Positions 1 through 17,093 of a DNA stretch of 54,562 nt are shown here, piece after piece. The stretch comes from a virus (taxonomy: Duplodnaviria > Heunggongvirae > Uroviricota > Caudoviricetes): IMG/VR virus record IMGVR_UViG_2568526722_000002, positions 1 to 54,562 of that record; one strand, given 5' to 3'. The notes beneath the pieces were generated by a model. That model worked only from the letters and a program-made list of their open reading frames with translations, searched no databases and was not told where the DNA came from. Every line of letters begins with the position of its first letter. Positions within the stretch are counted from its first letter, which is position 1. Position numbers and translations under genes: made by a program.

Positions 1-771
1 TCAATAAGTACCCTTCTTATTAGGATTCACACTAAATTTCCGTAAAGCATTCCCCGACTTAAGCACTTTTGAAGCCTGCTCATTAGCTGAGGCTGTGAAG
101 GTGCTCTCACCATTTTTAACGCTAACGCTCTTAGAGCACGTTACACGGGCTTTTAGCGCTTCATCTGATAACTCACTTGCCGAATAGCTAAAAAGCTCTT
201 TACAGGTCAGCATAGGGCTTCCAAGATTCGTTGTAGTGTTCCCTGTATTCTTTTTACTGGTAGCACCACCATCATTTGTGGTAGCCGTTTTGCCAGTGGC
301 TGCTGAAATATCAGTTTGCCCTACGATTGAACGAAACTCTACACCTTGGAAGGTCATCTGAATACGAAGACCATTAGCAATGGTATGCTCTTTACTCGCT
401 TTAAACTGAGTAATGATACTATCAGTGATAGATATTCCATCTTTACAAACAATAGTGATGATTTGCTTCTGGTCTCGCCATTGTTCAACCGTAGAAATAA
501 AGGTTTCTACAAGTTGCCCCTGTCTGGTTAATAGAACTGAACCCGTCGAATCAACCACTACAACACCGCTAATAGAGATGGTCTTAGGTGCTCTCTGAAC
601 ATTATCAGTGATAGTTTGCCCCGATTGCATAGCCTGAGTTGTCACCATCATCGGTGAGTCATAGTCCATCTGTTCAGTAGCTGTTAAGGCAAGAAAAGAT
701 TCTACATTATCTCGAAGATGAAAATAGATACCATCTTTACCTGAGTATCTAATTTGCTTTGTGTCAAACAT
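1..771 (-). CDS. phage tail-associated protein encoded just downstream of the tape-measure-like gene (function unresolved)
   Basis: Complete 256-aa ORF with its stop at bases 1-3. Same strand as, and immediately 3' of, the TMP-like gene. I can name no diagnostic motif. Confidence 0.5.
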
Positions 772-944: not shown

Positions 945-3011
945 TTATTCCTCTGGGTAAGCTGAGCTAATCAAGGTATCTTCCTGCATACGATTAATAT
1001 GTGATGTTGTCCTTTCATCAATAACTTTCCCATCAAGTACCGTCTGAGTTGTGATATTGATTGTCTGAGGCTGAATATTTACTGACGGCTTGATAAGCTT
1101 TAAATCTTGTGTGAATGTTTCCACTCGACCTTTCAGATTATTTAATGCTTCAGGTGAAAACTGTGGAACATCTTTTGATTTGCCCTGAACCATAGCCCAT
1201 AAAACAGTGGCTAAAGAGTTCATGTCACCAGTTAATGCTTGGTCTGTGGGTTCCACCTTTGACCTTACAACTTTATCAATTGGATTATCTGACTTACTCA
1301 TCTGACGTTCATAGAACGGTTTGACAATGGCATTAATCACATCAGTTGCCATACCGATAATCACTACTTTGGTAATTGCATCAGCTACAGATAATTTTCC
1401 TTTACCACCTTCAACACTACCGGAACGTGAATTAATTCTTCCTGCTGCTGTATTTGCTACATTTCCAAGCGTGGAAATAGCCCTAATTAAGTTCCAGATA
1501 CCACCTACAGCACCAATACCAGACCTTACAGCGACAATACCAGCAAGTCCCTTTAATGCACTTAACAGGCCATTTGCGATACCATCAGCTACAGCTTTTT
1601 GAGTGTCATTTAATTCTCTGTAAGCAAGGGTCACTCTGTCAAAGAATCCCTGCACTCGGTAGCTAATCGTGGTTAAATCATCAATACCGTTTGACATGCT
1701 TTTCATCAAGTCGCCAAAATGTTCACCAAGATTTTTAGCTTGACCACCCAGTGAATTAAGTAAATTAGTCAGTGACCTTGTAAAGTCTGTTAAACCTTCC
1801 TGTGAACCATCGAACATTAAGGCCAGATTATTATTCCATGAATTACTTAAGCGGCCTAACTGCGTCTGAGTAGAGTTAATAATCTTTTCCCATCCACCAG
1901 CTTTATCAATCATCCTTCCCATTTCAGCGGATACTTTAGGGAGAACATCTTTAGAAAGAACCTTACCGTCTTTCATGGCCTTGTCTAATTCTTCTGTAGT
2001 CATCCCAAGGCTTCTGGCAAATAACTGGAAAGCACCTGCCATTCTGTCACCTAATTGACCACGTAGCTCTTCAGCCTGAATCTTCCCTTTAGAAGCCATC
2101 TGCTCGAAAGCTTTCAGAATCCCGTTAATTTCATCAGTACTTAAACCCATTAATCTGGATGTGCCAATCACATTAGAAAATAGGGATTCTTTCTGGTCTG
2201 TATTCATATCACCAGCACCAGCGGAAAACTTAGCAAAACTGCTTAATGTTTCAATCTGGTCTACACCTGTATTATTAGCAAGATTCTTAACGAAGTCTGT
2301 AGCTCGTTTAGCGCCTTCATCGCCTAATACAAATTGTGCCGCTCGTTGTGATGCTTCTTTTTTCAGACCAACCTCCATAATCTTCCTATAAGCTTCTAAG
2401 GCTGTCTGAAAACTATAAATGGCTGTACCTGCTTTGATTGCACTTGTAGCTAATACATCTAAACCATTTGAAGCATTTTCACTGTGATTGTTTTTGCTGG
2501 TGGTCTTATTAAACTTAGAAAGTGTTTCACGTAGATTTTGATTTAACTTTGCTAACTCACGATTAAAAGCTTCGTTCCCAAGTGTCTTGGATTTACCGCT
2601 TAAGCTGTAATACTGGCTTCTAAAATACTTCTCAAGTAGAGGATTAAAGTCACGAAGCTTGCTCATATTCACGCTATGCGCTGCTGTGATTGCTCTGTTT
2701 CCGCTAATTCGTGGCTGTCTTGGCTGTCTAAGTGGCTTTAAAGTATCCTCAATTTCAGTTTTAATCTTAAACGCTTTAGTGTTTTTAAGACGCTGCTCAA
2801 TCTTGGAAACAGTCTTATCGACATTTCTTTCCATGACCTTGAGAGAATCATTTAAAGGCGTAGGGTTAACTCTGAATGCCTTATTTAGTCGTTTCTCAAT
2901 TCTTGATGCGATTTGCATCGTTTGTTTCTCGGCTTTTTCCAAGCCTTTTAAAACTTTCTGAGAGTTAAAACTTAACTCAATCAGAAAATCATCAACTTTA
3001 AACTGTGCCAT
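945..3011 (-). CDS. tail tape-measure-like protein
   Basis: 688-aa, largely helical ORF. Its core segment ...ELRGQLGDRMAGAFQLFARSLGMTTEELDKAMKDGKV... is typical of tape-measure proteins. The C-terminal third is Gly/Ala-rich and hydrophobic. Confidence 0.75.
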   Translation of the reverse strand: MAQFKVDDFLIELSFNSQKVLKGLEKAEKQTMQIASRIEKRLNKAFRVNPTPLNDSLKVMERNVDKTVSKIEQRLKNTKAFKIKTEIEDTLKPLRQPRQPRISGNRAITAAHSVNMSKLRDFNPLLEKYFRSQYYSLSGKSKTLGNEAFNRELAKLNQNLRETLSKFNKTTSKNNHSENASNGLDVLATSAIKAGTAIYSFQTALEAYRKIMEVGLKKEASQRAAQFVLGDEGAKRATDFVKNLANNTGVDQIETLSSFAKFSAGAGDMNTDQKESLFSNVIGTSRLMGLSTDEINGILKAFEQMASKGKIQAEELRGQLGDRMAGAFQLFARSLGMTTEELDKAMKDGKVLSKDVLPKVSAEMGRMIDKAGGWEKIINSTQTQLGRLSNSWNNNLALMFDGSQEGLTDFTRSLTNLLNSLGGQAKNLGEHFGDLMKSMSNGIDDLTTISYRVQGFFDRVTLAYRELNDTQKAVADGIANGLLSALKGLAGIVAVRSGIGAVGGIWNLIRAISTLGNVANTAAGRINSRSGSVEGGKGKLSVADAITKVVIIGMATDVINAIVKPFYERQMSKSDNPIDKVVRSKVEPTDQALTGDMNSLATVLWAMVQGKSKDVPQFSPEALNNLKGRVETFTQDLKLIKPSVNIQPQTINITTQTVLDGKVIDERTTSHINRMQEDTLISSAYPEE

Positions 3012-3346: not shown

Positions 3347-3368
3347 TAATCACCTCACATATGCATAA

Positions 3369-4073
3369 TTAAATAACCTTACTAAATTCTCGTGGAACAC
3401 TCAAAAAGTCATTGAAGCTACTAATCTGTGCAAGCTCTTGTTTGTATTCCTTAGCGATTTTTTGATGGTCACGAATCAAATTAGCCAGAGTTGATTTCAC
3501 CAAATTAATCTCGGTTTCTCTTACCTTCATCAGTCGCTTTCTAGCCATTTCTTCAAGCTCAGCTTGTGATTTATCAGAAATAATTAAAGTCAGTTTATGT
3601 GGCGCTCTGACAGCTCTTTCTGTACGAACAACTCTTTGGCCTTCTGGTAAATCTGCAATCACTTTACCAATTTCTGAATGGTCATATCCCCAACCGTCAC
3701 GGTCTAGTCTTGTATAATAATCGTAGGTGTTTGTCTGAAGCTCCATCAAAATAGCCATTTCGTCAACTTCATTTTCAAGTTTGGACTGAAGTTTTTCGTA
3801 AACACGATTCATAGCTTTTTGAGAGTCTCGAAGGTCTTTGAAATATTTGCGTTGCAGCTTCAGTTTCAAATCAAGCTCACATTCCTCATTCATCGAAAAA
3901 TCAATTTCAACTCTTGGAATCTCAAATGGTTCTGGTGGAATATATGGACCTTTATTTACTTCGTGTGATTCCCGCCAAGCTCTATCAAAAGATTCACGCA
4001 AAGTTAATTCGTGAATATCAAGTGCACTTGGTCGGCTTTCAATAATCATTTCATTTTCATCACGGATAGCCAT
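3369..4073 (-). CDS. hypothetical coiled-coil protein
   Basis: 234-aa ORF with GAGGAAAGG SD and charged heptad-like sequence. Confidence 0.6.
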   Translation of the reverse strand: MAIRDENEMIIESRPSALDIHELTLRESFDRAWRESHEVNKGPYIPPEPFEIPRVEIDFSMNEECELDLKLKLQRKYFKDLRDSQKAMNRVYEKLQSKLENEVDEMAILMELQTNTYDYYTRLDRDGWGYDHSEIGKVIADLPEGQRVVRTERAVRAPHKLTLIISDKSQAELEEMARKRLMKVRETEINLVKSTLANLIRDHQKIAKEYKQELAQISSFNDFLSVPREFSKVI

Positions 4074-4521
4074 TAATACCTTTCCTCTTCTAAGATAATT
4101 TATGTTTCAGTTTTTAAAAAGCACACCTGACAGCCTGCGAACTTAGAAGAGACTTAAAAGGCGTTTGCCAAGTATGCTTTTTAAAAGCTGAAAAAAGCCC
4201 TAAACATAGGTGATTCGGATATTCATGGAATCATCCTCATCTGTGAAGGGCTTTGGAGGTTTGCTTATAACGTTAACGAAGTTTCAGGAAAAACTTTCTT
4301 TAAAAGCTCTGTTTAAAACTCTTAAAGAAAACGCCCTAACTCATGATTAGGGCAAAGCTGTAAGGGTTCAATAATGAATGATTAAGCACTTTTTGAGATG
4401 ACCTCTCAGACTAAACTGAAAGGCCATGACGAAAAGCATTGCACCTTTCCAACTCAGAATATCCATCCATCGGATTATTGAAAATATGATTTTAGGAAAA
4501 ATTGCTCTTCCTATATATACA

Positions 4522-4550
4522 ATTATGTCATGCTTAAGATTATTTGTCAA
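4522..4550 (-). promoter_or_regulatory. sigma70-type promoter (TTGACA-17-CATAAT)
   Basis: Minus-strand read: TTGACA aataatcttaagcatga CATAAT. It lies ~450 nt upstream of the next start codon at 4073. Confidence 0.55.
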
Positions 4551-4574
4551 CAGCTTTTTAACAGATTGGTAACA

Positions 4575-4652
4575 TCAATTTTTATTTACCGCGTTGCCCA
4601 CCCAGCAACCAACAAATAAACCTAAAGCTGTCCAAGCAATTATTAAGCCCAT
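4575..4652 (-). CDS. 25-aa hydrophobic micro-protein, translationally coupled (TAATG) to the upstream gene
   Basis: MGLIIAWTALGLFVGCWVGNAVNKN. Its ATG overlaps the TAA of ORF 4652-4975. It is below the ORF-track length cut-off. Confidence 0.35.
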   Translation of the reverse strand: MGLIIAWTALGLFVGCWVGNAVNKN

Positions 4653-4975
4653 TAATGCACCACCTTCGAATCCGTAACCAAAACATTGTCAGCGTACAAA
4701 ATTACTATAGCCGCCTTGAGATATTTTTCAGGGCTAACGCTGTATCGGTTAGTTTCCTCAATAATAAGGCGCTTCATGTTTGAGTCGGTAACGGGAAACA
4801 TAAAACGTGGGTCACCAGTTTCAATTTCCTGAATAAAATCTTCAATTGTTTCTGAGTTATCAGCCATTAGCTTTAACAGCCTGTCAAAGTCAATGCTAAT
4901 ACCTGCATCAGTGAAGCTTTGCACCATCATAGCAGTGTCGGTATCAATAAAAATTTGTAATGGGTAACTGTTCAT
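4652..4975 (-). CDS. hypothetical protein
   Basis: 107-aa ORF with AAGGAG SD (ggtgaaaaaggagattttaagaaATG). Confidence 0.6.
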   Translation of the reverse strand: MNSYPLQIFIDTDTAMMVQSFTDAGISIDFDRLLKLMADNSETIEDFIQEIETGDPRFMFPVTDSNMKRLIIEETNRYSVSPEKYLKAAIVILYADNVLVTDSKVVH

Positions 4976-4997
4976 TTCTTAAAATCTCCTTTTTCAC

Positions 4998-5119
4998 CAG
5001 ACCTCCTCAATCGCTCTGTAACGAGCTAAACAGTCTTTTTCAGGGGTAGCCTGTACAGTGGTATTACCCACCCTAAAATAGGGTAGTTTTTTGCGTTAGA
5101 ATGCGATTGAGAGCGTCTG
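4998..5119. repeat. structured repeat element, copy A
   Basis: 5' arm CAGACCTCCTCAATCGC (4998-5014) pairs with 3' arm GCGATTGAGAGCGTCTG (5103-5119). Conserved inner flanks surround a variable hairpin-rich core. A second copy lies at 6653-6751. Confidence 0.7.
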
Positions 5120-5132
5120 AGAAGCTGTTTTT

Positions 5133-5420
5133 CTAATTTCTCTTAAAGTCTCGGACTTGCATAAGATTTTTTGGTCTGGTATCGGCTCTGTTACCATTTC
5201 GATGGATAATTTGCTTATTGGATTGATAGCCATGATAAAGGAACCAGACAACATATTTCACGTAGAAAGTGTATCGGCCTATATTAAATGTTTTGTTGCC
5301 GTAGTCGTCGGTATTTATCGTGACCGACTCTCCATCAGACCAGCACAGGGAATCACTGGATTCATCATAGATAAGGTGTTCTGTAAAATATCGTCTAACA
5401 TCTTCATGCCAAGGTTTCAT
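5133..5420 (-). CDS. HNH_3-like (homing-endonuclease-like) small protein, degenerate motif
   Basis: ...YVVWFLYHGYQSNKQIIHRNGNRADTRPKNL... parallels [29 protein letters not shown] of the HNH gene at 47704-48207. Confidence 0.5.
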   Translation of the reverse strand: MKPWHEDVRRYFTEHLIYDESSDSLCWSDGESVTINTDDYGNKTFNIGRYTFYVKYVVWFLYHGYQSNKQIIHRNGNRADTRPKNLMQVRDFKRN

Positions 5421-5632
5421 AAAACCTCCTCACCCCAATAACCTAATTCAATCTTGTGACGCTCAAACCATTCCGGTTTAACTGCTGTTTTCAGTGCTTC
5501 ATTTGGGCCAATGGCTTTAATGAAAATATCTTTTGAGTTATGGATGTCACCGAATCCGTTTCCTTCAATCAGGAGGTCGGAGATGTAGCGAATCATTTTA
5601 TCTGTGTGGTATTCAAAGGTAACGCATAGCAT
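5417..5632 (-). CDS. hypothetical protein
   Basis: 71-aa ORF whose start and stop overlap its neighbours (ATGA-type coupling). Confidence 0.5.
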   Translation of the reverse strand: MLCVTFEYHTDKMIRYISDLLIEGNGFGDIHNSKDIFIKAIGPNEALKTAVKPEWFERHKIELGYWGEEVL

Positions 5633-5913
5633 TAAACCTCCATCGCTAATTTGTGAATTTTGATACTCATTAGACGGGAAATATCAATTTTAAAGTTGTT
5701 AAGTCCCTTCAAAGTATCTAAAGCGTCCTGAGTAATTCGGATGTGTTTACGACCTTTAGAGACTGGATATTTCAGTAAATCCGACTCAGTGACCTCTTTA
5801 GCAATCGCAAGTTGCATAATAGTTTGATGAGGCAGGCTAGTTGTCTGTTTAATTCGGGTAAGCTCGTTAAAAGCTTCCTCTGAAATACGGGTTAATGTGT
5901 GTCTGCTTTTCAT
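5632..5913 (-). CDS. putative DNA-binding protein (two RHH-like half repeats)
   Basis: Start chosen at MKSRH, preceded by a GGAGG SD. Two similar segments are present: TRISEEAFNEL and IRITQDALDTL. Confidence 0.45.
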   Translation of the reverse strand: MKSRHTLTRISEEAFNELTRIKQTTSLPHQTIMQLAIAKEVTESDLLKYPVSKGRKHIRITQDALDTLKGLNNFKIDISRLMSIKIHKLAMEV

Positions 5914-5914
5914 T

Positions 5915-6466
5915 TTAAAATTCCTCCAAAATATACGGGTCAAACTCAAAGTCTGGTTCACTGGTCGTAAGGCTAATATTGCCCACTTCCACATGATGAT
6001 TGATTGTCTCGATAACTTTATTGCAAATGGTGGCTAAGTTAGCGCAATATTTATCGCTTGGTAGCTCATGGCTTAATCGGGTCGCTTGACGCTGAAGACA
6101 ATTTGTTATTGTGCTTGAGCTAATTTTGTCAATATTTCGTAATAGATAGAAAACTTTCCGGTGATAATTATCCCTTCCAAGACTGCGACAAGTACCGATA
6201 ATTATATCTTCAATTTTTGATGGTAATTGCTCGTAAGAATCAAAGCTCATCAGGAAAGTCTTTAAAGTGTTCTCTTTTTCTTTGCGTGTTGGCATGTGTC
6301 TTACCCGTGGCGTAATGCTACGAATGACCGCTTCAATGTTTCTACGTTCGGATTTGGTAAAGGCTGGGACTTCGTAGCTGGTGGGGGTGTCTGTGTAGCT
6401 GTAACCGTTGTGTCTGTTGCGTCTCTTGGATTCTTCAAGAAACTTTTGAAATTCTCTGTCGTTCAT
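5915..6466 (-). CDS. hypothetical early protein
   Basis: 183-aa ORF, the first gene downstream of the strong minus-strand promoter at 6518-6546. Confidence 0.6.
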   Translation of the reverse strand: MNDREFQKFLEESKRRNRHNGYSYTDTPTSYEVPAFTKSERRNIEAVIRSITPRVRHMPTRKEKENTLKTFLMSFDSYEQLPSKIEDIIIGTCRSLGRDNYHRKVFYLLRNIDKISSSTITNCLQRQATRLSHELPSDKYCANLATICNKVIETINHHVEVGNISLTTSEPDFEFDPYILEEF

Positions 6467-6517
6467 TCATATTCTGACCCTCATAAGATGTTATTATTCT
6501 GTTAACTCATATATACA

Positions 6518-6546
6518 ATACTAGCAGTTTCAAAGACTAATGTCAA
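6518..6546 (-). promoter_or_regulatory. sigma70 promoter TTGACA-17-TAGTAT driving the 6466->4652 operon
   Basis: Minus-strand read: TTGACA ttagtctttgaaactgc TAGTAT. Confidence 0.65.
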
Positions 6547-6553
6547 GTATTTT

Positions 6554-6583
6554 TTAACATTTTATTAACATTTGTGGTATAAT
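6554..6583 (+). promoter_or_regulatory. divergent sigma70 promoter TTAACA-18-TATAAT with TGn extended -10
   Basis: ttaaca ttttattaacatttgtgg tataat. It sits back-to-back with the minus-strand promoter. Confidence 0.6.
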
Positions 6584-6652
6584 GGTCCTATGGGGAGAGT
6601 AAAATATAAAGGCGTGGCCATGTATTTGGTCACATGGTTATTGCATTGCACA

Positions 6653-6751
6653 CAGACCTCTTCAATCGCCCTGTAACGAGTTAAACGACCTCTTCAGGTC
6701 AACTCATAAGGTCAGGTACTTTTTGTGTCAGAATGCGATTGAGAGCGTCTT
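6653..6751. repeat. structured repeat element, copy B
   Basis: CAGACCTCTTCAATCGC ... GCGATTGAGAGCGTCTT, with the same conserved flanks as copy A and a different core hairpin (gacctcttcaggtc). Confidence 0.7.
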
Positions 6752-6764
6752 ACAAGGAAATTTA

Positions 6765-6953
6765 ATGGTAAATCTCCCTCCTGAGCTGGGGTCACCTGAT
6801 GTATGGGCTGGTGGAGGTATTGGACTTATTGCAGGTCTGCTGCTTCGCTATTTCATCGTCAGAGTGTTTATCGTGTTCAGATTGTTTGGTCGTGAATGGT
6901 CGTTTGACCTCAAGGACAGAGGCCGTGAAGACAATCACACAGAACCCCGCTAA
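6765..6953 (+). CDS. possible 62-aa single-pass membrane protein
   Basis: MVNLPPELGSPDVWAGGGIGLIAGLLLRYFIVRVFIVF..., with an AAGGA SD 8 nt upstream. It competes with overlapping ORFs on both strands. Confidence 0.3.
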   Translation: MVNLPPELGSPDVWAGGGIGLIAGLLLRYFIVRVFIVFRLFGREWSFDLKDRGREDNHTEPR

Positions 6954-7066
6954 ACTCCCTCCAAAACCCCCTGTACGAGATGGTATAGGGGTATCTTTAG
7001 CATTTTGTGCTATCCATGAAAAAATAACTTGACAGAACCGGAAAGCTGTATCTATCAAGTATTCAC

Positions 7067-7251
7067 CCTTCTAACAGTAATTTCTAAAAGTTCTTATTTT
7101 TCAATAAGTTGTAATTAGCCATATATAGAGAACTGACAAGTCTCTTCACAGACAACTCTGCAACCTTAACAGTAACTTCTAAAAATGCTTATTTTTCAAC
7201 GAGTTGTAATCACCCAATATATAAGGCTGTCCAGCACCTTCACAGAGAAAC
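7067..7251. repeat. two ~90-bp tandem direct repeats (period ~96 bp)
   Basis: Each unit reads ccttNtaacagtaaYttctaaaa..ttatttttcaaYRagttgtaat..atatataRRg..cttcacaga. A condensed third copy lies at ~9313-9345. Confidence 0.7.
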
Positions 7252-7957
7252 TTCAGAGGTCTTCTTAATCAATCCACTAAGCGGGAGAGAGCGATAACCC
7301 CAGAGAGGGAAGCTCCCTTCTTAATCGGCCTCCTAACCAGTCTTTACAAACCTTGTTCAAGGTAATCACAATAGATTTTTCTTCCCTCGTTCTTCGTGTT
7401 CCTCGGTTTGCCTATTGAGACTTGAAAGACCTCTGTAACTTCCCTCTTAGACAGGGAAGAATAATATTGGTGACACAAGCGAAGCGCCCCTCTAAAAAGA
7501 TTTTTTAGCTATTTTGTTTAAAAACACATCAAACGATACATTTTATTGATTTAGGTCAAAGACAAAAGCATTGACAAAATGGTAAGATTGTTCACATGAC
7601 CTTACTTAACAGACTTTTAAGAGGCTTTGAAACGACCTACTTAACAAGGTCACTACATCTGGTCTTATCGTTCCCTGTCTTCTTGGTAGTTCTGTTAAGT
7701 ATCTTTTCAGGTATCTCTTACAGTCACTGTTAAGATGATACTCTCCCTTCGGGTTATATCGTATCTCTTCCCCCGTTAAACACTCCTTCCTAACAACTTC
7801 ATAGTTATCTGTCAAGTACCTTTGAAGATTCTATCAAGACCTCTAAATCTGACCTGATATAGATGCTGTGAAGGCATGTTCTCTAGGTCTGTGTAGCTTA
7901 CTTAGCGGGAAAAGAGGATATGGTGACCATAGGGGAACCCCTCCTGTTAAAAGTTTC

Positions 7958-7985
7958 TTGATGTTATCATCACAATATGTATAAT
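7958..7985 (+). promoter_or_regulatory. sigma70 promoter TTGATG-16-TATAAT
   Basis: ttgatg ttatcatcacaatatg tataat. Confidence 0.6.
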
Positions 7986-7991
7986 CACCAA

Positions 7992-8152
7992 CTGTACAGA
8001 CACCTTAACGGTTTCTCTACACCTCACTATGGCTAGGTAGGGTATGGTTTAGCTTGGTACGGCTAGGTTAGGTCTGGTTTGGTTAGGTATGGGTGGATTG
8101 TCGTAGCCACGTTAAAAATCGACTTATAGGGACTCTTTCGGGAGTCCTTTTT
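7992..8152 (+). ncRNA. candidate ~160-nt small RNA with GG-dinucleotide repeat body
   Basis: Bounded by the promoter at 7958-7985 and an intrinsic terminator at 8130-8152. No ORF longer than 5 codons. 8031-8096 carries 13 GG/GGG tracts in two ~30-nt units (ggctaggt...). Confidence 0.45.
8130..8152 (+). terminator. intrinsic terminator
   Basis: GGACTC tttcgg GAGTCC followed by TTTTT. Confidence 0.7.
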
Positions 8153-8260
8153 AGTTTGTATAAAATCTGTACAGTAACTTTTCAGAGTCTGAAAATTTTT
8201 ATAAAAAATGACTAGCCCTCTTTGAATCTCATCTTCCCCGAATCTTCGAAAATATCTGTC

Positions 8261-8273
8261 TAGTTGATTCGGT
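8261..8273. repeat. left 13-bp inverted repeat flanking the recombinase cassette
   Basis: TAGTTGATTCGGT is the exact reverse complement of 9119-9131 (ACCGAATCAACTA). Confidence 0.8.
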
Positions 8274-8381
8274 AGAATCTACCTCATGATGTATACCTGC
8301 TAAGTACCCGTCACACCAGCTATGTGACCCCCTTTGCAAAAAAGCCAAATATCAGCTACATCCATGTAACTATTCGGTAAC

Positions 8382-8930
8382 TTATTTAGCAAGTCTGTAA
8401 TAAGTTGCTTTAGAGATTCCTAATTCTTCCTGAATCTGCAACCTCGTTTTACCTTGTGAAATAAGCGTCTGTACAGCCTCTGAAGAAGCTTTTACAGGCC
8501 TCCCCATATGTACCCCTTCAGCTTTAGCACGTTCAATACCAGCCTTTCTACGTTCACTGATAAGGTCTTTTTCAAGGTCAGCTAAACCAGCCATCATAGT
8601 AAGCATTGCTCTACCGATTGGTGTTAATAAGTCGAAACCTTCACGCAAAGAAACAACTCTCACACCTTTAGTCTGTAGTGCCTCCACGTTAGAGAGCACA
8701 TCAACGGTATTACGCCCTAAACGGTCAATAGCTACCACAACTAACGTATCGTCACACCTTACATAGTTCATCATGTCTCTAAAACCATCTCTGCTGGTGG
8801 CCTTTGTAGCTCCTGAGACAGCCTCATCAATAAACCATTTATCGACCTTGTGAACCTTCTCTATCTGTAGTTTCTGGTTGTCTACAGTCTGGTCTTGTGT
8901 TGATACCCTGCAATAACCAATCACCGCCAT
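8382..8930 (-). CDS. small serine recombinase (resolvase/invertase family)
   Basis: MAVIGYCRVSTQDQ... (catalytic Ser motif), ...VVVAIDRLGRN..., and a C-terminal HTH (LGISKATYYRLAK). 182 aa, with AAGGGGGA SD. Confidence 0.9.
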   Translation of the reverse strand: MAVIGYCRVSTQDQTVDNQKLQIEKVHKVDKWFIDEAVSGATKATSRDGFRDMMNYVRCDDTLVVVAIDRLGRNTVDVLSNVEALQTKGVRVVSLREGFDLLTPIGRAMLTMMAGLADLEKDLISERRKAGIERAKAEGVHMGRPVKASSEAVQTLISQGKTRLQIQEELGISKATYYRLAK

Positions 8931-8944
8931 ACATCCCCCTTAGA

Positions 8945-9069
8945 AGTCTCAAAAGTTGGTCTCATAAGTTTAGCTGTCTCACAATCCAAAAACAACCTTT
9001 TGAGACACTTGGAAGGTGCATTCTACCGTTACGTTGAAAGTGTCTCAAAAGGAAGTCCTTTTAAGACTG
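8945..9069. promoter_or_regulatory. res-like cluster of six GTCTCAAAAG-type motifs upstream of the recombinase gene
   Basis: Motifs start at 8945(+), 8957(+), 8974(+), 8997(-), 9041(+) and 9058(-). They form inverted pairs such as TGTCTCA..N..TGAGACA and GTCTCAAAAGGaagtCCTTTTAAGAC. Confidence 0.55.
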
Positions 9070-9118
9070 GTTATGAAGGAGCTATGAGGTTGATTAGGGG
9101 TTGGTACAAGCCCAACTA

Positions 9119-9131
9119 ACCGAATCAACTA
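9119..9131. repeat. right 13-bp inverted repeat flanking the recombinase cassette
   Basis: ACCGAATCAACTA. Related ACCGAATAG copies lie at 8368-8378 (-) and 9479-9491 (+). Confidence 0.8.
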
Positions 9132-9494
9132 TGAAGATTTTAGGAGGGTAACTATAACCATCACTTCCTAACTTTCACATAGCTGATTGTTATCTCTTGC
9201 AACTGTAACGTATGGTGACCAAACATCTATATAGCGTTATATGCTCCTGTATATAGCACTTTTCTAGGAGTCGAGAGAGGGACGACTAACACGATACAGT
9301 TTACCCTGAAAAGAGACTTCACAGATTCTTTATATATTTCAATAAGTTATGATAAAAAGGGACTATACCGATACTGCATAGAATCTGTGTAGAATTGCAT
9401 AGATAGCGCATAAATACACCGTTAAATTGCATAGTCATTCACCTGTTTATGTCCTGTTATTAACAGGTTTCTTAGAAAACCGAATAGACTTCAT

Positions 9495-9505
9495 TCAAGG
9501 GTCAT
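9495..9505 (-). pseudogene. tonB: tonB, first 11 nt only (ATGACCCTTGA), truncated by the AT-rich block
   Basis: Minus-strand ...ctactgaaatgattatgacttcaATGACCCTTGA matches the E. coli tonB leader and start as I remember it. The sequence then diverges (aatgaag versus tttacct). Confidence 0.6.
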
Positions 9506-9585
9506 TGAAGTCATAATCATTTCAGTAGAAAAACCAGGTCTCGATTTTAAATGCAAATAGCAATCATATTCAATAAGGCAAGACG
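9506..9585 (-). promoter_or_regulatory. tonB promoter / Fur-box region (divergent from yciI)
   Basis: The reverse complement reads gaatatgattgctatttgcatttaaaatcgagacctggtttttctactgaaatgattatgacttca, recalled as the tonB upstream region. Confidence 0.45.
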
Positions 9586-9728
9586 ATCAGGATCAGTGAA
9601 AATGTCATTTTTGGCGTAATTACCCTTACTTTATGCATGGCCTTAACAAAGACATCATCTTTCCGTTGCAGATCTTCGCCCTTTCAAATAACGTACTTTA
9701 CAACTTTCCCGAACAAGGAGTTGTGCCC

Positions 9729-10025
9729 GTGTTGTATGTTATTTACGCTCAAGACAAAGCTGATAGCCTCGAAAAACGCCTTTCCGTTCGTCCGGCACAT
9801 TTAGCACGTTTACAGTTACTGCATGATGAAGGTCGTTTGTTGACAGCTGGTCCAATGCCAGCGGTAGACAGTAACGATCCAGGGGCTGCGGGATTTACTG
9901 GCTCAACCGTTATTGCTGAATTTGAATCGCTGGAAGCAGCTCAGGCCTGGGCCGATGCTGACCCGTACGTAGCGGCAGGAGTCTATGAACACGTTTCAGT
10001 GAAACCATTTAAGAAAGTGTTCTAA
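9729..10025 (+). CDS. yciI: YciI-family protein
   Basis: From a GTG start: [98 protein letters not shown]. This matches E. coli YciI (98 aa) from memory. Confidence 0.9.
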
Positions 10026-10089
10026 TTTATTAGAAATTTGCACTTAAATCAAAAAGTTACGGACAATTCAACCACCAATCAATAAATTA

Positions 10090-10135
10090 AAGGGCACATT
10101 AAAGTACACAATATTTGTGCCCTTCTCTGTTTCTT
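10090..10135 (+). terminator. putative yciI terminator hairpin
   Basis: AAGGGCACA ...17 nt... TGTGCCCTT followed by the T-rich ctctgtttctttc. Confidence 0.5.
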
Positions 10136-10143
10136 TCCCGTTA

Positions 10144-10692
10144 TCAGCTAGCTGGAAACTTTTTATACAGAGTTGAGAGCCCTACTCCATACGTTTTTGA
10201 TACGCTTTGTCGTGATTCACCGGTTGCCATCCGCTCCCCCATTTCCCGCCATTGCTCATCCGTGAACTTAGGCCTGCGACCACCAACTCGCCATTTTGCC
10301 CTGGCTACGGCCAGCCCTGCTAAGGTACGTTCGCTATTAAGATCAGATTCATATTGTGCTGCGGAAAGGATGTTACGAAAGTTATAGCGGCCGCTGGCTG
10401 TTTTGAGATCCACGCCATCGGTAATACTGCGGAAGTTGATACCCTTTTCCTGTAACTGCTGGAACATCAACAGCGCATGCAGAACGTTGCGGCCTATCCT
10501 GTCCAGCTTCCAGACCACCAGTTCATCCCCCGGCTGCATAGTGGCGATCAGCCGTTTTAGAACCGGCCGATTCGATTTCCTCCCGCTGGCATGCTCTTCA
10601 AAAATTTTCTCACAACCCGCTGACTTGAGCGCCGTTAGTTGCAATTCAGTGTCCTGGTGGTTTGTTGATACTCGGGCATAACCGTAAATCAT
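10144..10692 (-). CDS. DNA invertase (Pin/Gin/Hin/Cin family serine recombinase)
   Basis: MIYGYARVSTNHQDTELQ..., VVWKLDRIGRN, INFRSITDG, and a C-terminal ...GLSTLYKKFPAS that resembles Pin ...LSTLYKKHPA. Confidence 0.9.
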   Translation of the reverse strand: MIYGYARVSTNHQDTELQLTALKSAGCEKIFEEHASGRKSNRPVLKRLIATMQPGDELVVWKLDRIGRNVLHALLMFQQLQEKGINFRSITDGVDLKTASGRYNFRNILSAAQYESDLNSERTLAGLAVARAKWRVGGRRPKFTDEQWREMGERMATGESRQSVSKTYGVGLSTLYKKFPAS

Positions 10693-10751
10693 GAGTGCTT
10701 CTCCTGTTGTAAAAACAGGAGAAGAGGCGAAATATCACCTGATTCAGAAAA

Positions 10752-10777
10752 ATATTTGAAAGGTTGGTTTGGGAGAA
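10752..10777. other. orphan invertase crossover site (gix/pix/cix-like)
   Basis: The reverse complement TTCTCCCAAACCAACCTTTCAAATAT follows the TTC..AAACC..GGTTT.. pattern of Gin/Pin/Cin sites. It sits at the start of the tail-fibre tip fragment. No partner site is present in the window. Confidence 0.55.
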
Positions 10778-10896
10778 GCGGCAAAACGGGATGTGGGAAC
10801 AGGGGAAAATCAGATACCGGATATGGCTTTTTTTGCCAGTGGTGATGGATGGATGAAATTACCCAACGGTAAAATCCTGCAATATGGTCGAGGTGC
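10769..10896 (+). pseudogene. tail-fibre variable-tip fragment (both ends missing)
   Basis: ...[30 protein letters not shown] is typical of invertible tail-fibre C-terminal segments. The frame runs straight into yecD sequence at ~10897. Confidence 0.6.
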
Positions 10897-11120
10897 GGTT
10901 ACGCCGCCGAGGTATCGATACAATTGTGTTATGTGGGATCTCGACCAATATCGGTGTTGAATCCACCGCCCGCAATGCCTGGGAACTTGGCTTTAATCTG
11001 GTGATTGCCGAAGACGCCTGTAGTGCCGCCAGCGCCGAGCAACACAATAACAGCATTAATCATATCTACCCGCGCATCGCCCGTGTGCGTAGCGTGGAAG
11101 AGATCCTTCACGCGTTATGA
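10897..11120 (+). pseudogene. yecD: yecD (isochorismatase-family) 3' fragment
   Basis: [72 protein letters not shown] matches the C-terminus of E. coli YecD from memory. The N-terminal ~115 codons are absent. Confidence 0.75.
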
Positions 11121-11212
11121 TTTACATCGGTCTGCCGCAATGGTCGCATCCTAAATGGGTGCGGTTGGGGATCACCAGCCTTGAAGAGTATGCCCGCCAC
11201 TTTAACTGCGTG
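11117..11212 (+). pseudogene. yecE: yecE 5' fragment, interrupted by the prophage
   Basis: [32 protein letters not shown], then divergence (TR-stop). The ATGA overlap with the yecD stop matches the chromosomal arrangement. Confidence 0.75.
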
Positions 11213-11383
11213 ACGCGGTAAATTTAAAAATCGACAAATATCGTCCAGGAGCGCCATTTTTAATGGCTGGAGATAGCATCCAATATACGTTGTTTGCAAT
11301 GTTTGGCGAAATTCAATGATTTCTCATGCCCCACCCATGCCCCAAGACGCCTGACACGCGAAATCTTCCACAAATTACTGCAA

Positions 11384-11701
11384 CTAAACAACCGCGTTAT
11401 CTTGGCGAACATCGCAGATAGTAAACGTCACGACCCCGATGACAGTGACATCGTCCAGGGCCTCACCTTCAATCGCTTCGCCGTCTTCAGTAATCAGCGA
11501 ACGCCCTCTCAACGTGGCAAGTTCGGTCCCGCCGCCGTGCTGGATAAGAACCTGGCTTCCCTGCTTTGGCTTCAGGGAGATATCCAGCACAACATAACCG
11601 CCATCCCTTTCGAAAACGCGGGTGTTCGGCCCGACATTGCATATCGAGTTAACGGACAGTCGCTGCTCGACGTAGTCGGACGCCGGTGAAGGAAATCCCA
11701 T
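11384..11701 (-). CDS. UmuD'-like / S24 C-terminal-domain-like protein lacking the Ser-Lys dyad
   Basis: Starts MGFPSPASDYVEQRLSVN (compare UmuD' GFPSPAADYVEQRIDLN). The positions equivalent to SGDSM and the catalytic K read ERDGG and ELATL. Its ATG overlaps the upstream TAA (TAATG). Confidence 0.6.
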   Translation of the reverse strand: MGFPSPASDYVEQRLSVNSICNVGPNTRVFERDGGYVVLDISLKPKQGSQVLIQHGGGTELATLRGRSLITEDGEAIEGEALDDVTVIGVVTFTICDVRQDNAVV

Positions 11702-11940
11702 TACAGAACCCTCCCCATGTTGGCCATCATCCACAAACGGTTTTCGCTATGGTCGGTGGTTTTGTCGACAAAGTACGTCTGCTCTCTAGATATCCACGCA
11801 TTAGCCTCTGAGTCGGTAAAGTGCAGCCCACGCCGGCGCAGCGCTGACACAAAATCCTTTGTGTGCAGGTACTGGTAGCCTTTGGAGTTGCGCAATACCG
11901 ACTCGCGGAATGCCTGATTGATGTCTGACTGACGGTGCAT
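11701..11940 (-). CDS. 79-aa SOS-controlled protein (candidate antirepressor)
   Basis: MHRQSDINQAF..., with GGAGGCA SD. A LexA box lies 18 nt upstream of the start. Confidence 0.55.
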   Translation of the reverse strand: MHRQSDINQAFRESVLRNSKGYQYLHTKDFVSALRRRGLHFTDSEANAWISREQTYFVDKTTDHSENRLWMMANMGRVL

Positions 11941-11957
11941 GATCTGCCTCCGATTGA

Positions 11958-11977
11958 TACTGTTTTTATATACAGCA
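11958..11977. promoter_or_regulatory. LexA (SOS) box
   Basis: TACTGTTTTTATATACAGCA fits CTGT-N8-ACAG. Confidence 0.8.
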
Positions 11978-12075
11978 GTTTCATCAAAGAGTCGGATCAA
12001 TACTTGATGATGACTTTGTTTTATCTTCCGGTAGCCTCTTAAATTGCTTTTCACACAAATAATTGATATCAATAC

Positions 12076-12315
12076 ATGTTTTATCCAAGACACTCCGCCA
12101 CCAAAATGAGTACAAAAAGTGACACTCTTGTTCGCAGAATACTACGTAAATCCGATGGCCTGGGCCTCAAGCTCAGCAAGCCTGGGATCGACTACGAGGT
12201 CCTACAGTCACATGGATGGACTGAAATTTCAGATGGCACTAACACGATAATGGTGGAGCTTACTGATGGTGGTAAGTTGCAATTCTTCTTATGCGTCAAA
12301 CATCTGAGAGCATAG
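12076..12315 (+). CDS. hypothetical protein (weak call)
   Basis: 79-aa ORF divergent from the SOS-box operon. No clear SD. Confidence 0.3.
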   Translation: MFYPRHSATKMSTKSDTLVRRILRKSDGLGLKLSKPGIDYEVLQSHGWTEISDGTNTIMVELTDGGKLQFFLCVKHLRA

Positions 12316-12319
12316 ACCT

Positions 12320-13075
12320 TTATTGCATCGCCAGTAAAAATTGAGAGACAGATATTTTTTCAGCAGAAGTTAAAGAGCCGTTCATTAGCAATGTTGACTT
12401 AATATACTTGCTGGATGTTTCTACGTTGTTATCCACCTTTCTACCCATCAGTACGTTATTTGTGCCAGCAACCCTTGTCCCTGGCAGGGTTGATGTCGCT
12501 GACACCAGTGTGGAGGTCGCGGCGTTGAAAATATCGATTGCCACCACTCCCTGATTAACAGTGGCCACAAAAGCAAATAGACTTCCTGCAGCTATCGATG
12601 AAGGAAAATCAGCATAAGCATACACAGCAGACTGCCCGGTATTTTGAGCTACACAGAACAATCGCCCGGTGGTGTCAAAGCCTATAGAAAAGCCACTGGC
12701 CGTAGAGCCGCTTCCTGCATAATCCGCAATCATATGAGAGTTCAGTCCAGCTGCGGCATTCCTTTTTACCACTCCGCAAATGGTAACACTAAGTGTTGCT
12801 TTCTTCCTTGTATCCAGATAGTTACTAGGATTAACGGTAATAAACCCGCCAGTGTTATTCACTGTCCCGTTAATCACCGCCGGGTTATTTTGATCGTATG
12901 AGTCGTAAGTAATATCTGTTACCGGGTCCCCGAAATAGAACCCGGCATACGGTGTTGCCCCTGTGGTTGGCAGACCAATAAACCAGTTCGAAACATCAAA
13001 ATCAGAAAGAGTTTTCATCCCTGTTATCACAGGAAGAACTGCATCAATATAAATGGCGGAAATAGGCATTATCAA
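12320..13075 (-). CDS. LamG/concanavalin-like beta-sandwich protein, probable receptor-binding accessory
   Basis: 251 aa. The pattern ...FAFVATVNQGVVAIDIFN...LMGRKVDNN...LLMNGSLTSAEKISV resembles Laminin_G_3 domains. It has an ATGA overlap with the tailspike gene. Confidence 0.5.
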   Translation of the reverse strand: MIMPISAIYIDAVLPVITGMKTLSDFDVSNWFIGLPTTGATPYAGFYFGDPVTDITYDSYDQNNPAVINGTVNNTGGFITVNPSNYLDTRKKATLSVTICGVVKRNAAAGLNSHMIADYAGSGSTASGFSIGFDTTGRLFCVAQNTGQSAVYAYADFPSSIAAGSLFAFVATVNQGVVAIDIFNAATSTLVSATSTLPGTRVAGTNNVLMGRKVDNNVETSSKYIKSTLLMNGSLTSAEKISVSQFLLAMQ

Positions 13076-14916
13076 CCCCCGATAAAAAATTCTTTTTTAA
13101 TTGCTCTCGTCAGTACATACGCGCCAAGAGGACTTAGATGGAGGCCGTCAGCCCATGCCCCCCCAACACTGTTATAAACCTTTGGAAATAGTTGATACCC
13201 ACTAATAAAATTAACATTTTGCTCTACAGCTATTTCCCTCATTGTTTTATCGTACTCTGACAATGCTGGCGTACCTGTAGCGTTGCATTGCGCGGGTGAC
13301 ATTAGGCAGATGCAAATATCTGGCGTTGCACTACGGTATTTCGAGATAATCTCAACTATTCCTGACTTGTACTCAGCGACACCCTGGCTCAGTCTGAAGT
13401 CATTTGTCCCGAGAATAATAAACAGCAGATCAATGTCCAGATATTGCGCTACTGGCTGTATCCATAATGAAAAGTTGAAATAATCGCTCGCTATAGATGC
13501 TCCGTTGCCCATCCTTGATACGGTAAGCCCAGATGCAATAGAGTTATTTTTACCGTACATTCCAAGGATAGAAACAACACCGGTACCGGTACTTTGGATC
13601 GTCACCGTATGTGCGGTCGCGCTAAGTCCGCTGAAATCATATTTCTTGGCAGTTCCTGTATTCCCTCCCGTGATTGTTACGGGTGTATTACTGTCGATGG
13701 TGATAGTGAACGTTCCAGACCCGTCATAATAAAATACTGATAGATTTGTTACGGTCACGCCGGTCCAGACGAGAGAACCAACAGTGTTGTTGTTATAGTA
13801 CCCGTTTCCATCAGGCCCGCAGCCATATGGCGGAATGTTCGTGTTATTGCTCCCACCATCATATTTTGTAAAGTTGGTGGCTGTAACGGGTGATATCCCG
13901 GACATGACACCATCAGTTCTGTCTGAGCAACTGATCCACCCAGGGTCTTTGTATGTTCCACCAAGGATATTAATTAAAGACTGAGGAATGGTGTTTTTCT
14001 CTGTCCACGAATCGCCGGTAAAAGCAATGTTTAGGCTGGTAGACTGGCCAGCAAAAATACGGCTATTTTTGAAAAGGAACTTGTACTGATCTCCTTCGAT
14101 GAAGGAACGTACCGCATTAACTTCCCCACCAGACACCAGGTTTTTGACATATTCCTGCAATACCGGGCCAAGACCTGGAGCATCGAATAGCCCACCATTA
14201 AACCAAGCATATACGTTCCCTTGTTGGTCATATAAAAAAGGAAAGTAATAAGGTGAAAAGTCTCCTTGCGGTATAAACTTCTGGGCCCATTCGTTTGGAA
14301 TTTCAGAAACAACCTGTGTAACATTTGGCCCCAGTCCGGCCACATCAAATTTGCCGCCATCAAACCATGCTGGCACCATACTATTCCTGTCAAAGAAGGC
14401 CGGGAAATAACCAGGCCTGTATTCACCTGGGACGAGGCGCTCATTAATTTTATCATCAACGGTCTTGGTTGATGGCATTTGGCGCCCAGTAGGCTCCAGA
14501 GTCCCTCCGTTATTAATGACTTCAATTGCCAGCGAGCTATCATCAGGACTGCGATAATACGTGGCGCTTCCTGTCGGAATATTAGCAATATCTGCCTGTG
14601 CATCAGCAAGCGTCATGTATTGCTTGCTCAGAGGGATCAGGTTTTGGCGGGCTTCATCAATAACAGCGTCGGTAGCAGCTGCCATTTTTTTAGTAGCCCC
14701 AATTATCGTATCCCGGGCGTTACCAAAACGATCTATAAAAGTATCGCTTTCGCTGTTCAGGAAATCATCGTACGCCAGGGCGTTATCATTCAGATCCTTC
14801 ATGCTATTTGAAGGTCTTGGATTGCCGGTATTATATCTTTTGTCCATACCTGTTCCTGTCTTCATCTTTTCAATGAAGCAATTAAGATTGACGACCCGCC
14901 CCTTCAGGGCTAACAT
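13072..14916 (-). CDS. tailspike / tail fibre with C-terminal SGNH (GDSL) esterase domain
   Basis: SGNH blocks are present: FTGDSWTE, FIILGTNDF and ADGLHLSPLG. The N-terminus ...YNTGNPRPSNSMKDLNDNALAYDDFLNS is typical of fibre/spike adaptors. The true start may be the internal Met at 14865 or 14847. Confidence 0.75.
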   Translation of the reverse strand: MLALKGRVVNLNCFIEKMKTGTGMDKRYNTGNPRPSNSMKDLNDNALAYDDFLNSESDTFIDRFGNARDTIIGATKKMAAATDAVIDEARQNLIPLSKQYMTLADAQADIANIPTGSATYYRSPDDSSLAIEVINNGGTLEPTGRQMPSTKTVDDKINERLVPGEYRPGYFPAFFDRNSMVPAWFDGGKFDVAGLGPNVTQVVSEIPNEWAQKFIPQGDFSPYYFPFLYDQQGNVYAWFNGGLFDAPGLGPVLQEYVKNLVSGGEVNAVRSFIEGDQYKFLFKNSRIFAGQSTSLNIAFTGDSWTEKNTIPQSLINILGGTYKDPGWISCSDRTDGVMSGISPVTATNFTKYDGGSNNTNIPPYGCGPDGNGYYNNNTVGSLVWTGVTVTNLSVFYYDGSGTFTITIDSNTPVTITGGNTGTAKKYDFSGLSATAHTVTIQSTGTGVVSILGMYGKNNSIASGLTVSRMGNGASIASDYFNFSLWIQPVAQYLDIDLLFIILGTNDFRLSQGVAEYKSGIVEIISKYRSATPDICICLMSPAQCNATGTPALSEYDKTMREIAVEQNVNFISGYQLFPKVYNSVGGAWADGLHLSPLGAYVLTRAIKKEFFIGG

Positions 14917-14924
14917 CGCCTTAC

Positions 14925-15212
14925 GTGTTTAAACGGTTAAGTAAGAGAATGATTTTAATAAATAAATACACTCCTCCAACGCAGGAAGATTTAGCCAGAC
15001 TGAAATCCGCAATAAACTACTCCGGAAACCAAATGGCAGGGCTCGCAGGTGTAGCCAGCGATAGCCAATGGCGGAAATACACTGGCGGAGAGAGCCCCAG
15101 GGTAATGTCAAGACACATACTGTTTTATATTGCAGCTCAGCTTGTTCTGTCTGATGAGCAACTTAACAATGTAATAAATAAAATGCGCGATATTGGCGCG
15201 GAGATAAAATAA
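14925..15212 (+). CDS. XRE-type HTH protein
   Basis: ...LARLKSAINYSGNQMAGLAGVASDSQWRKYTGGESP.... Its stop overlaps the acyltransferase start (TAATG). The start is uncertain (GTG 14925 or ATG 14949). Confidence 0.55.
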   Translation: MFKRLSKRMILINKYTPPTQEDLARLKSAINYSGNQMAGLAGVASDSQWRKYTGGESPRVMSRHILFYIAAQLVLSDEQLNNVINKMRDIGAEIK

Positions 15213-17067: not shown

Positions 17068-17093
17068 ATAAACCTTCTTTTTAAATGTCTGAA

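Follow-up and report, generated by a model that had tools for sequence, protein, structure and literature searches.

An integrated relative of FelixO1-like phages at the start codon of tonB in Escherichia coli

Introduction

The DNA considered here (the window) is a stretch of 54,562 nucleotides, IMG/VR virus record IMGVR_UViG_2568526722_000002, positions 1 to 54,562, assigned to the Caudoviricetes. At one point in it, AT-rich DNA meets the first codons of tonB. An earlier reading of the sequence alone (the original prediction) took this for an insertion that, if real, would abolish TonB and so confer resistance to T1, phi80 and colicins, and it likened repeated words near the junction to the end-binding sites of a recombinase or transposase. 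The locus thus raises the question of what was inserted, by what route, and whether the gene survived.

We find that window positions 9375-9507 are the right end and attR of an 11,148-bp integrated mobile element, and that the junction is what serine-recombinase integration ordinarily produces. The tonB open reading frame is retained; the change is a regulatory one, in which the upstream region has been exchanged. Taken jointly, an attR formed by serine-recombinase integration and a tonB rebuilt at attL are in our judgment very probable.

The right junction

Alignment with E. coli K-12 sets the breakpoint within the fourth codon of tonB, exactly where the original prediction had joined a foreign AT-rich element to the gene, and it bears out both the intact tonB leader on the yciI side and the position of the stub. 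On the minus strand the order is native tonB leader, ATGACCCTTGA at 9505-9495, and AT-rich DNA (TCAAGGGTCAT, at 9495-9505, is the reverse complement of ATGACCCTTGA). Right of the stub, the K-12 alignment identifies the DNA as the normal tonB-yciI intergenic region, and no further part of tonB lies within the window beyond the stub. The G+C content is about 0.35-0.43 left of the junction, against about 0.47-0.54 over the host DNA to the right. The features at the junction are as follows.

9468..9494, no strand assigned: P' arm, the element-side half of the att site, TTTCTTAGAAAACCGAATAGACTTCAT
9495-9507: 13-bp att core of attR, TCAAGGGTCATTG on the plus strand and CAATGACCCTTGA in the tonB direction (minus strand), from the K-12 alignment
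9508..9573, minus strand: native tonB leader and promoter-like site, TTGAAT-18-TAAAAT at 9573-9544, from a promoter scan
9729..10025, plus strand: yciI, the host gene right of the junction, annotated as yciI in all matching genomes

The att core takes in the tonB start codon and the 8 bases beyond it, that is, the first 11 bases of tonB. Identity between the two junctions extends over 13 bp, not 11, the two bases before the ATG being common as well, and genomes without the element match an attL query only from 2 nt 5' of the ATG onward. The 13 bp are found at the opposite junction too and in a single copy in the empty K-12 site, so attP and attB would share 13 bp. The K-12 sequence is rebuilt exactly from the left part of attR and the right part of attL, as can be seen when the sites are written in the tonB direction around the 11-bp core ATGACCCTTGA (the full shared identity being 13 bp):

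attB (K-12): left flank ...GATTATGACTTCA, core ATGACCCTTGA, right flank TTTACCTCGCC...
attR (window): left flank ...GATTATGACTTCA, core ATGACCCTTGA, right flank ATGAAGTCTATTCGG...
attL: left flank ...GCCGAATAGCTACAATACA, core ATGACCCTTGA, right flank TTTACCTCGCC...

Within the P' arm, the word ACCGAATAG occupies 9479-9487. Its last eight positions, CCGAATAG at 9480-9487, form with CTATTCGG in the attL arm an inverted repeat of 8-bp arms. From these pieces we infer both the attP site and the position of the crossover: the reconstructed attP reads CCGAATAG-28 bp-CTATTCGG and is symmetric about A|C inside the core. In the att site, the outer motif on the element side is CCGAATAG. Positions 9468-9494 are absent from a sibling element, inserted in yecE, that uses another recombinase. 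We compared 24 distinct attR arms, taken from six genomes and 21 metagenome contigs; 9468-9479 are near-invariant across them, whereas the invariance of columns 9480-9505 follows from the use of that exact string as the search query.

The left junction and its recombinase

The start of the element falls outside the window. Contig L003 (GCA_000492275.1), whose tape measure protein is exactly that of the window, matches the window without a difference across 13,011 bases and reaches 9 kb further left. There it has a second copy of the core, at window coordinate -1653 (1.65 kb left of the window), followed by an intact tonB open reading frame of 239 aa, giving an element length of 11,148 bp from core to core. 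The remaining tonB and matching junction, which the original prediction proposed to look for elsewhere in the genome, are thus both at attL in L003; what it had allowed might be an assembly chimera is the attL/attR pair of a site-specific insertion. An intact tonB elsewhere is also the finding that it had itself set against the loss of TonB, and this loss is therefore refuted by the reading frame 11.1 kb away, at the opposite junction of a window-identical contig. With the tonB frame intact, resistance to T1, phi80 or colicins is not implied by the sequence. Beside attL lies one further gene:

L003 13044-14564 (outside the window), divergent from tonB: large serine recombinase, 506 aa, adjoining attL

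The recombinase has the domains Resolvase (PF00239, 63 bits), Recombinase (PF07508, 57.8 bits) and Zn_ribbon_recom (PF13408, 27.6 bits), all above the curated cut-offs. Its N-terminus contains VRTVITYLRFSS / VRTVITYLRFSSATQ, in which the motif YLRFS fits Y-x-R-x-S; the catalytic serine of this motif is assigned by analogy only. A short att site with an inverted repeat, together with a three-domain recombinase, is the att architecture of serine integrases. A comparison of the recombinase with solved structures gave no detectable sequence match. Among sequenced phages the nearest homologue is about 31% identical (YbcK-like), with none closer; IMG/VR holds no relative, and the species-representative genomes hold one only. 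A Citrobacter species has a 91%-identical recombinase and an attL junction at the start of its own tonB. The attL arm, of 90 bp, has 2 variable positions across 7 copies while the adjoining recombinase gene has a dS of 0.28, so the arm is under strong constraint.

We propose that the large serine recombinase inserts the element into a site spanning the tonB start codon. Recombination inside the 13 bp would leave a dead stub at attR, consisting of the native promoter and leader followed by MTLE-stop, and would rebuild full-length tonB at attL.

Distribution of the element

The attR junction is present in 218, and the attL junction in 225, of 5,426 complete E. coli genomes (about 4%). Window positions 1-9494 match chromosomal DNA in 570 complete E. 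coli genomes, in which the matching genes carry the annotations tape measure protein, phage baseplate protein, HNH endonuclease and recombinase family proteins. In O55:H7 TB182A, the closest genome (98% identical), about 11 kb are inserted between yciI and a tonB annotated at full length, and the 506-aa recombinase gene adjoins tonB; the architecture with a full-length annotated tonB is found in TB182A, 730V1, PEC178, UMNK88 and PS2C. The carriers are human, pig, poultry, cattle and environmental isolates, and one Citrobacter genome shares the arrangement. Among collection strains, NCTC10444, UMNK88 and FDAARGOS_1337 carry the element.

Fate and regulation of tonB

Because the core duplicated at the junctions holds the first 11 bases of tonB, the reading frame is rebuilt and the gene kept. 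Its annotation is that of a normal gene in all carriers inspected, 60 listed carriers among them. What has moved is its control region. Positions 9508-9573 are identical to the K-12 DNA upstream of tonB, but the promoter-like site there is cut off from tonB and faces into the element, on the strand of all element genes bar the recombinase. The native tonB promoter has been described as Fur-controlled. In carriers, tonB instead sits behind the 90-bp element arm that it has in common with the divergent recombinase gene, and it is presumably from this arm that tonB is expressed.

The arm itself offers one promoter-like match, against 0.9 expected by chance. Its best Fur-box-like site agrees at 13 of 19 positions (TTAAATGATAATCAATTGC) and carries a T to G change in 2 of 7 copies; matches as good as this number 26 in 63.6 kb and about 5.9 per shuffled element, so that the site is at background level and at most a speculative candidate for a Fur box. 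In-frame ATGs also lie upstream of tonB in the arm, and one gene caller extends the protein to a 251-aa TonB.

For annotation, the consequence is that a truncated tonB start beside foreign DNA mimics a knockout of a gene central to iron uptake and to the entry of phages and colicins, and should not be scored as a loss. The carriers, some 4% of E. coli genomes, are natural promoter swaps at tonB, and the swap could affect iron responses as well as susceptibility to TonB-dependent phages and colicins.

Conserved words at the right end

Three further features lie at the right end of the element body.

9306..9353, plus strand: third copy of a repeat unit, CTG..CTTCACAGA and TATaTTTCAATAAGTTaTgAT (families D2 and D3)
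9375-9381, 9396-9402 and 9428-9434, plus strand: three direct TGCWTAG words, from conservation in the arms
9453..9467, no strand assigned: 7-1-7 palindrome CCTGTTATTAACAGG, reaching the last conserved position of the element body (9467)

The TGCATAG words begin at 9375, 9396 and 9428, precisely where they had been reported, and AATTGCATAG begins at 9393 and 9425. The palindrome CCTGTTATTAACAGG is likewise real, its place being 9453-9467 and not 9445-9459, and it is accompanied by a third half-site, ACCTG(T/A)T, at 9441-9447. Over the whole window, TGCATAG occurs 8 times against 6.8 expected, 3 of the 8 falling inside 60 bp, while CCTGT-N5-ACAGG is unique, with 0.02 occurrences expected per window. 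Of the 24 arms, at least 22 have TGCWTAG at each of the three positions (the second word being TGCTTAG in 19), and at least 22 retain the palindrome's outer CCTGT/ACAGG around a variable centre. The stretches that separate these sites vary from arm to arm. Blocks placed at random were equally conserved in 85 of 20,000 trials.

The yecE sibling keeps the three words and the palindrome beside a different recombinase, and similarity to it stops at 9467. Kept in spite of another recombinase and another target, they belong to the element body and not to the att site; by this comparison they are not sites for the recombinase of the tonB element. The end-binding sites of the original prediction therefore hold for ACCGAATAG, which lies in the recombinase site as an arm of the attP inverted repeat, but not for the words and palindrome. 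Most likely, these are protein-binding regulatory cis sites at the right end of the element. A fourth copy of the word, AATTGCATGG, is in the attL arm just 5' of the recombinase start codon; a minus-strand promoter-like site (9391-9362) overlaps the first and second words; and the palindrome scores as a weak terminator-like hairpin on the plus strand. The repeat unit at 9306-9353 occurs twice more in the ORF-poor region described below, and the block is strongly conserved across the arms.

Several other candidates in this arm were considered and set aside. A small ORF (9432 to 9319) with the ribosome-binding site AGGTGA encodes 39 aa in the window's lineage only, and 10-12 aa in most copies. 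Scores for a structured RNA in the attR arm were z = 0.03 to -1.5 on both strands, and Rfam gave no credible match over 1-12000. The arm has no blastn match among 50,697 phage records, and its k-mer peak (z of about 3-4) comes from scattered 9-11-mers inside phage coding sequence. TTAACAG words from the phage left end, considered as an origin for the palindrome half-site, are not enriched in the arm. A tyrosine-integrase prophage with arm-type sites was rejected as well, there being no tyrosine integrase and the words being kept in the sibling with another recombinase and att site.

Gene content of the element

The element encodes the large recombinase, two or three tail-related genes, an HNH endonuclease and a small recombinase. 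The part of it within the window includes the following.

1..771, minus strand: Dit-like tail/baseplate protein, 256 aa (Pfam Dit_like)
945..3011, minus strand: tape measure protein, 688 aa (Pfam TMP_3)
3369..4073, minus strand: conserved 234-aa protein, specific to the element family (dN/dS 0.27)
5133..5420, minus strand: HNH endonuclease, 95 aa (Pfam HNH_3)
6467..8381, no strand assigned: ORF-poor region with patches 74-89% identical to FelixO1-like non-coding DNA
8382..8930, minus strand: small serine recombinase of resolvase/invertase type, 182 aa (Pfam Resolvase and HTH_7; PHROG DNA invertase)
8946..9067, no strand assigned: GTCTCAAAAG-type half-site array upstream of the small recombinase gene

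The half-site array holds a 12-2-12 palindrome, GTCTCAAAAGGA-AG-TCCTTTTAAGAC, at 9042-9067; it overlaps a promoter-like site (9048-9020) and is conserved in other copies. Homologues of the 234-aa protein occur in E. coli, Shigella and Citrobacter only, all annotated as hypothetical, and its predicted model (pLDDT 54) is all-helical and too poor for a fold search. PHROGs and Pfam revealed no family for capsid, portal, terminase or lysis in the element, and 5 of its 10 proteins fell into no family at all. The element has neither a transposase nor a tyrosine integrase, and its ten proteins gave no matches to defence-system models.

The genes are intact in every copy tested, with dN/dS of 0.12-0.35 and dS of 0.16-1.5, against a dS of at most 0.035 for tonB. 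The element genes are thus under purifying selection, and the combination of intact genes, low dN/dS and high dS speaks for an element that functions and moves horizontally, not for a remnant in decay.

Relationship to FelixO1-like phages

The best phage matches of the tape measure protein are FelixO1-like virulent myoviruses. With the complete genome of the Felixounavirus JLBYU28 as reference, the correspondences are these.

1-771, Dit-like protein: JLBYU28_95, the next gene after the phage tape measure; 65% amino acid identity over the full length
945-3011, tape measure: the syntenic JLBYU28 tape measure; 29% amino acid identity over the full length
1919-2111, patch of the tape measure gene: JLBYU28 59126-59318; 77% DNA identity
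7625-7676, non-coding: JLBYU28 921-971, in its ORF-poor left end; 85% DNA identity
8167-8341, non-coding: JLBYU28 499-674, in its ORF-poor left end; 74% DNA identity

The pair of tail genes is common to all variants of the element, the Citrobacter copy included. Matches to the ORF-poor region occur in 152 Felixounavirus records, and almost none of them falls under an annotated feature; when k-mers were scanned without bias, the phage window that fitted the region best was again the left end (z = 7-8). According to one report, Felixounavirus genomes are linear with direct terminal repeats (PMC11737134); the deposited JLBYU28 record has no repeat between its two ends. From these matches and the selection described above, the element is kin to virulent FelixO1-like phages, compact in form and maintained by selection.

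The element is small and integrated, has an integrase and is without autonomous lytic genes, which is the generic description of a satellite. We tentatively suggest that the element, in E. coli and Citrobacter, may be a satellite of virulent FelixO1-like phages not described before, living much as PLE does with ICP1 and with a helper dependence that we infer from gene content and kinship. Such a satellite would move by means of its large serine recombinase, would encode a tape measure and an adjoining tail/baseplate protein as its own counterparts of the helper's, and would imitate non-coding signals of the helper's genome end. Parking at the tonB start would swap upstream control and may alter sensitivity to TonB-dependent phages and colicins or iron regulation, and it would place the iron-regulated tonB promoter to read into the element's genes. 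If this proposal is right, a virulent coliphage group widely used in typing and biocontrol has a satellite, and one that is unusual for having tail genes. In PHROGs and Pfam, no matches were found to marker genes of P4-like satellites (primase, Sid, Psu, Delta), PICI/cfPICI (Stl, Ppi, TerS, capsid) or PLE (RepA, TcaP). The literature that we searched describes no satellite of FelixO1-like phages or Felixounavirus and no link of tonB to a serine-recombinase att site.

Alternative explanations

That the element is instead a decayed prophage remnant, immobile and with functionless leftovers at its ends, seems to us unlikely, although some observations favour it: its phage genes are a few tail genes with no head, terminase or lysis genes, an excised attP junction is absent from IMG/VR and from the metagenome contigs, and neither sequenced phages nor IMG/VR yielded a close relative. 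A remnant, however, would not be expected to have the same size (11-12 kb) and gene order in all copies, genes intact under the selection reported above, or conserved islands in its arms. The copies also diverge far beyond their host flanks (dS to 1.5 against at most 0.035), which argues for repeated horizontal acquisition. Presence at the same site in Citrobacter and siblings with a swapped recombinase and att module also count against immobile decay. A transposon, for which the 13-bp repeat would be a target-site duplication and the words the transposase end-binding sites of the original prediction, is extremely improbable. The element has no transposase gene; a complete large serine recombinase adjoins the junction, and 225 E. 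coli genomes share with Citrobacter one and the same insertion point. The transposon does account for a direct repeat flanking the insert, its 13 bp formally resembling such a duplication, and for short inverted words near both ends, but the words stand at one end only, bar the one copy beside the recombinase start.

Two doubts of narrower scope concern the arms. The TGCATAG words and palindrome could be chance features of AT-rich DNA, given that the window-wide count of the word equals expectation, that most copies have TGCTTAG as the second word, and that the arm gave no RNA structure signal, conserved small ORF or phage DNA match. We consider this improbable in the face of conserved islands amid variable spacers in 24 arms, which few of the random placements equalled, of sites retained by the yecE sibling, and of a palindrome pattern so rarely expected in the window. 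Still less probable is a rebuilt tonB frame that is silent, its promoter 11 kb off and the carriers TonB-deficient. A silent gene should decay, and the frame is intact in all carriers examined, which make up about 4% of complete genomes across many hosts and lineages and extend to the same site in Citrobacter. The displaced native promoter and the absence of an above-chance promoter signal in the attL arm would fit silence, yet the 90 bp 5' of tonB are almost invariant, and the yecE sibling, by contrast, just splits its target.

Comparison with known systems

The preferred reading, a serine-recombinase element that rebuilds tonB at attL, can be set beside several known arrangements. The elements phiC31, Bxb1 (in groEL1), A118 (comK) and SPbeta (spsM) also integrate by large serine recombinases, and in them the target gene is split and is restored only on excision. 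Like them, the tonB element has an integrase with resolvase, recombinase and zinc-ribbon domains and short att sites, with an imperfect inverted repeat around the crossover, a short identity between attP and attB and no need of arm-type sites; unlike them, it leaves its target rebuilt while integrated, with only the promoter displaced. Elements that integrate into a gene as a rule bring a duplicate of its end; the insertions of e14 and phage 21 in icd, made by tyrosine integrases, replace the 3' end of the gene. The tonB element resembles these in bringing a copy of the displaced gene part, so that the host gene is intact, and differs in that it replaces the 5' end with the start codon, thereby swapping the regulatory region.

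PLE of Vibrio cholerae, a small chromosomal element with a large serine recombinase and without a full set of virion genes, is a satellite of the virulent myovirus ICP1, to which it is related and on which it depends (PMC9638900, PMC7145576). The tonB element is likewise small and chromosomal, with a large serine recombinase, kinship to a virulent myovirus and partial virion genes, the helper dependence here being a conjecture. Unlike PLE, it has no detected PLE marker genes, its target is tonB, and it carries a tape measure gene and the gene that follows it, both of FelixO1-like derivation.

Closer at hand, the yecE sibling (E. coli WP9-S17-ESBL-11, L035) shares its gene order with the tonB element and is about 90% identical to it in DNA up to 9467. 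It differs in having a 507-aa serine recombinase of another kind with another att site, and an extra 277-aa gene at its right end, and it leaves yecE as two fragments. The attachment site of phi80 at yciI is a hotspot neighbouring the tonB insertion. Directly past yciI, window positions 10026-11252 are the pinL end of a phi80/mEp237-like prophage; this is a separate element with its own integrase, unrelated to the insertion at tonB. The less common trait of the tonB element within this company is that the start codon is part of its shared core: the target gene is thereby preserved, and the exchange is confined to the control region.

Flanking sequences at tonB and yciI

The attL arm, outside the window at positions 14619-14654 of L003 (a contig of GCA_000492275.1), contributes two in-frame ATGs from the element 5' of the tonB start (MANATMPNSYNT-MTLD...), which is why one gene caller extends the predicted TonB by 12 residues at its N-terminus, to 251 aa. 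On the other side of the element, the gene yciI has been reported as the integration site of phi80 (PMC5727415). Immediately 3' of the yciI stop codon, window 10026-11252 shows 97-99% identity to phi80 and to phage mEp237 at their pinL (DNA invertase) end, and thus two different mobile elements flank yciI. Matches to phi80-type phages cover only about 1.2 kb within window 10026-22000, so the phi80-like DNA there is a remnant or a mosaic.

Variants and a sibling of the element

We found a sibling element inside yecE in E. coli WP9-S17-ESBL-11 (L035 3906-16604), with the same gene order as the window element but with a large serine recombinase of its own, distinct from that of the window element, and an additional 277-aa gene at its right end. 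Because yecE is annotated there as two pseudogene fragments, the target is not restored by this sibling. The commoner variants of the element (L007 9566-11545, L005, L006 and L008) encode a Dam-type methyltransferase together with a protein of about 314 aa that has an HTH_36 domain; the window variant has in their place an HNH gene, small ORFs and an ORF-poor region, which is a module swap within the element family.

Tail genes and the ORF-poor region

The tape measure and Dit-like genes of the element (window 1-3011) show synteny with JLBYU28, a FelixO1-like virulent phage (Felixounavirus): they correspond to its tape measure gene and the next gene, with amino acid identities of 29% and 65%, respectively. 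Purifying selection was observed on these, the only two tail genes retained by the 11-kb element. In the Citrobacter sp. ANG330 copy (L004 12422-16459), an insert, which could be an insertion sequence, seems to interrupt the tape measure gene; two ORFs of this insert, 340 and 259 aa long, run on the opposite strand.

No ORF of at least 80 aa was found in the 1.9 kb of window 6467-8381, which contains a repeat:

7072-7121 and 7167-7216, direct repeat with 95-bp spacing

About 70% of this region can be aligned with its counterpart in the Citrobacter element, which is just as poor in ORFs, and patches of the window region are common to the non-coding DNA of 152 FelixO1-like phages. The region might contain a sequence that mimics a packaging, replication or promoter signal of a FelixO1-like phage.

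Sites near the small serine recombinase gene

In the E. coli PEC178 copy (L006 12331-12906), the small recombinase is a different protein of 191 aa, encoded on the opposite strand, and the arm adjoining its gene has insertions. In the window, these features are found upstream of the gene for the small serine recombinase:

8946-9067, six GTCTCAAAAG-type half-sites (8946+, 8959+, 8976+, 8998-, 9042+, 9058-)
9042-9067, 12-2-12 palindrome, part of the half-site array
9048-9020, promoter-like site TTGAGA-17-TAGAAT, overlapped by the array

In its layout, the array at 8946-9067 resembles a res or hix/gix site.
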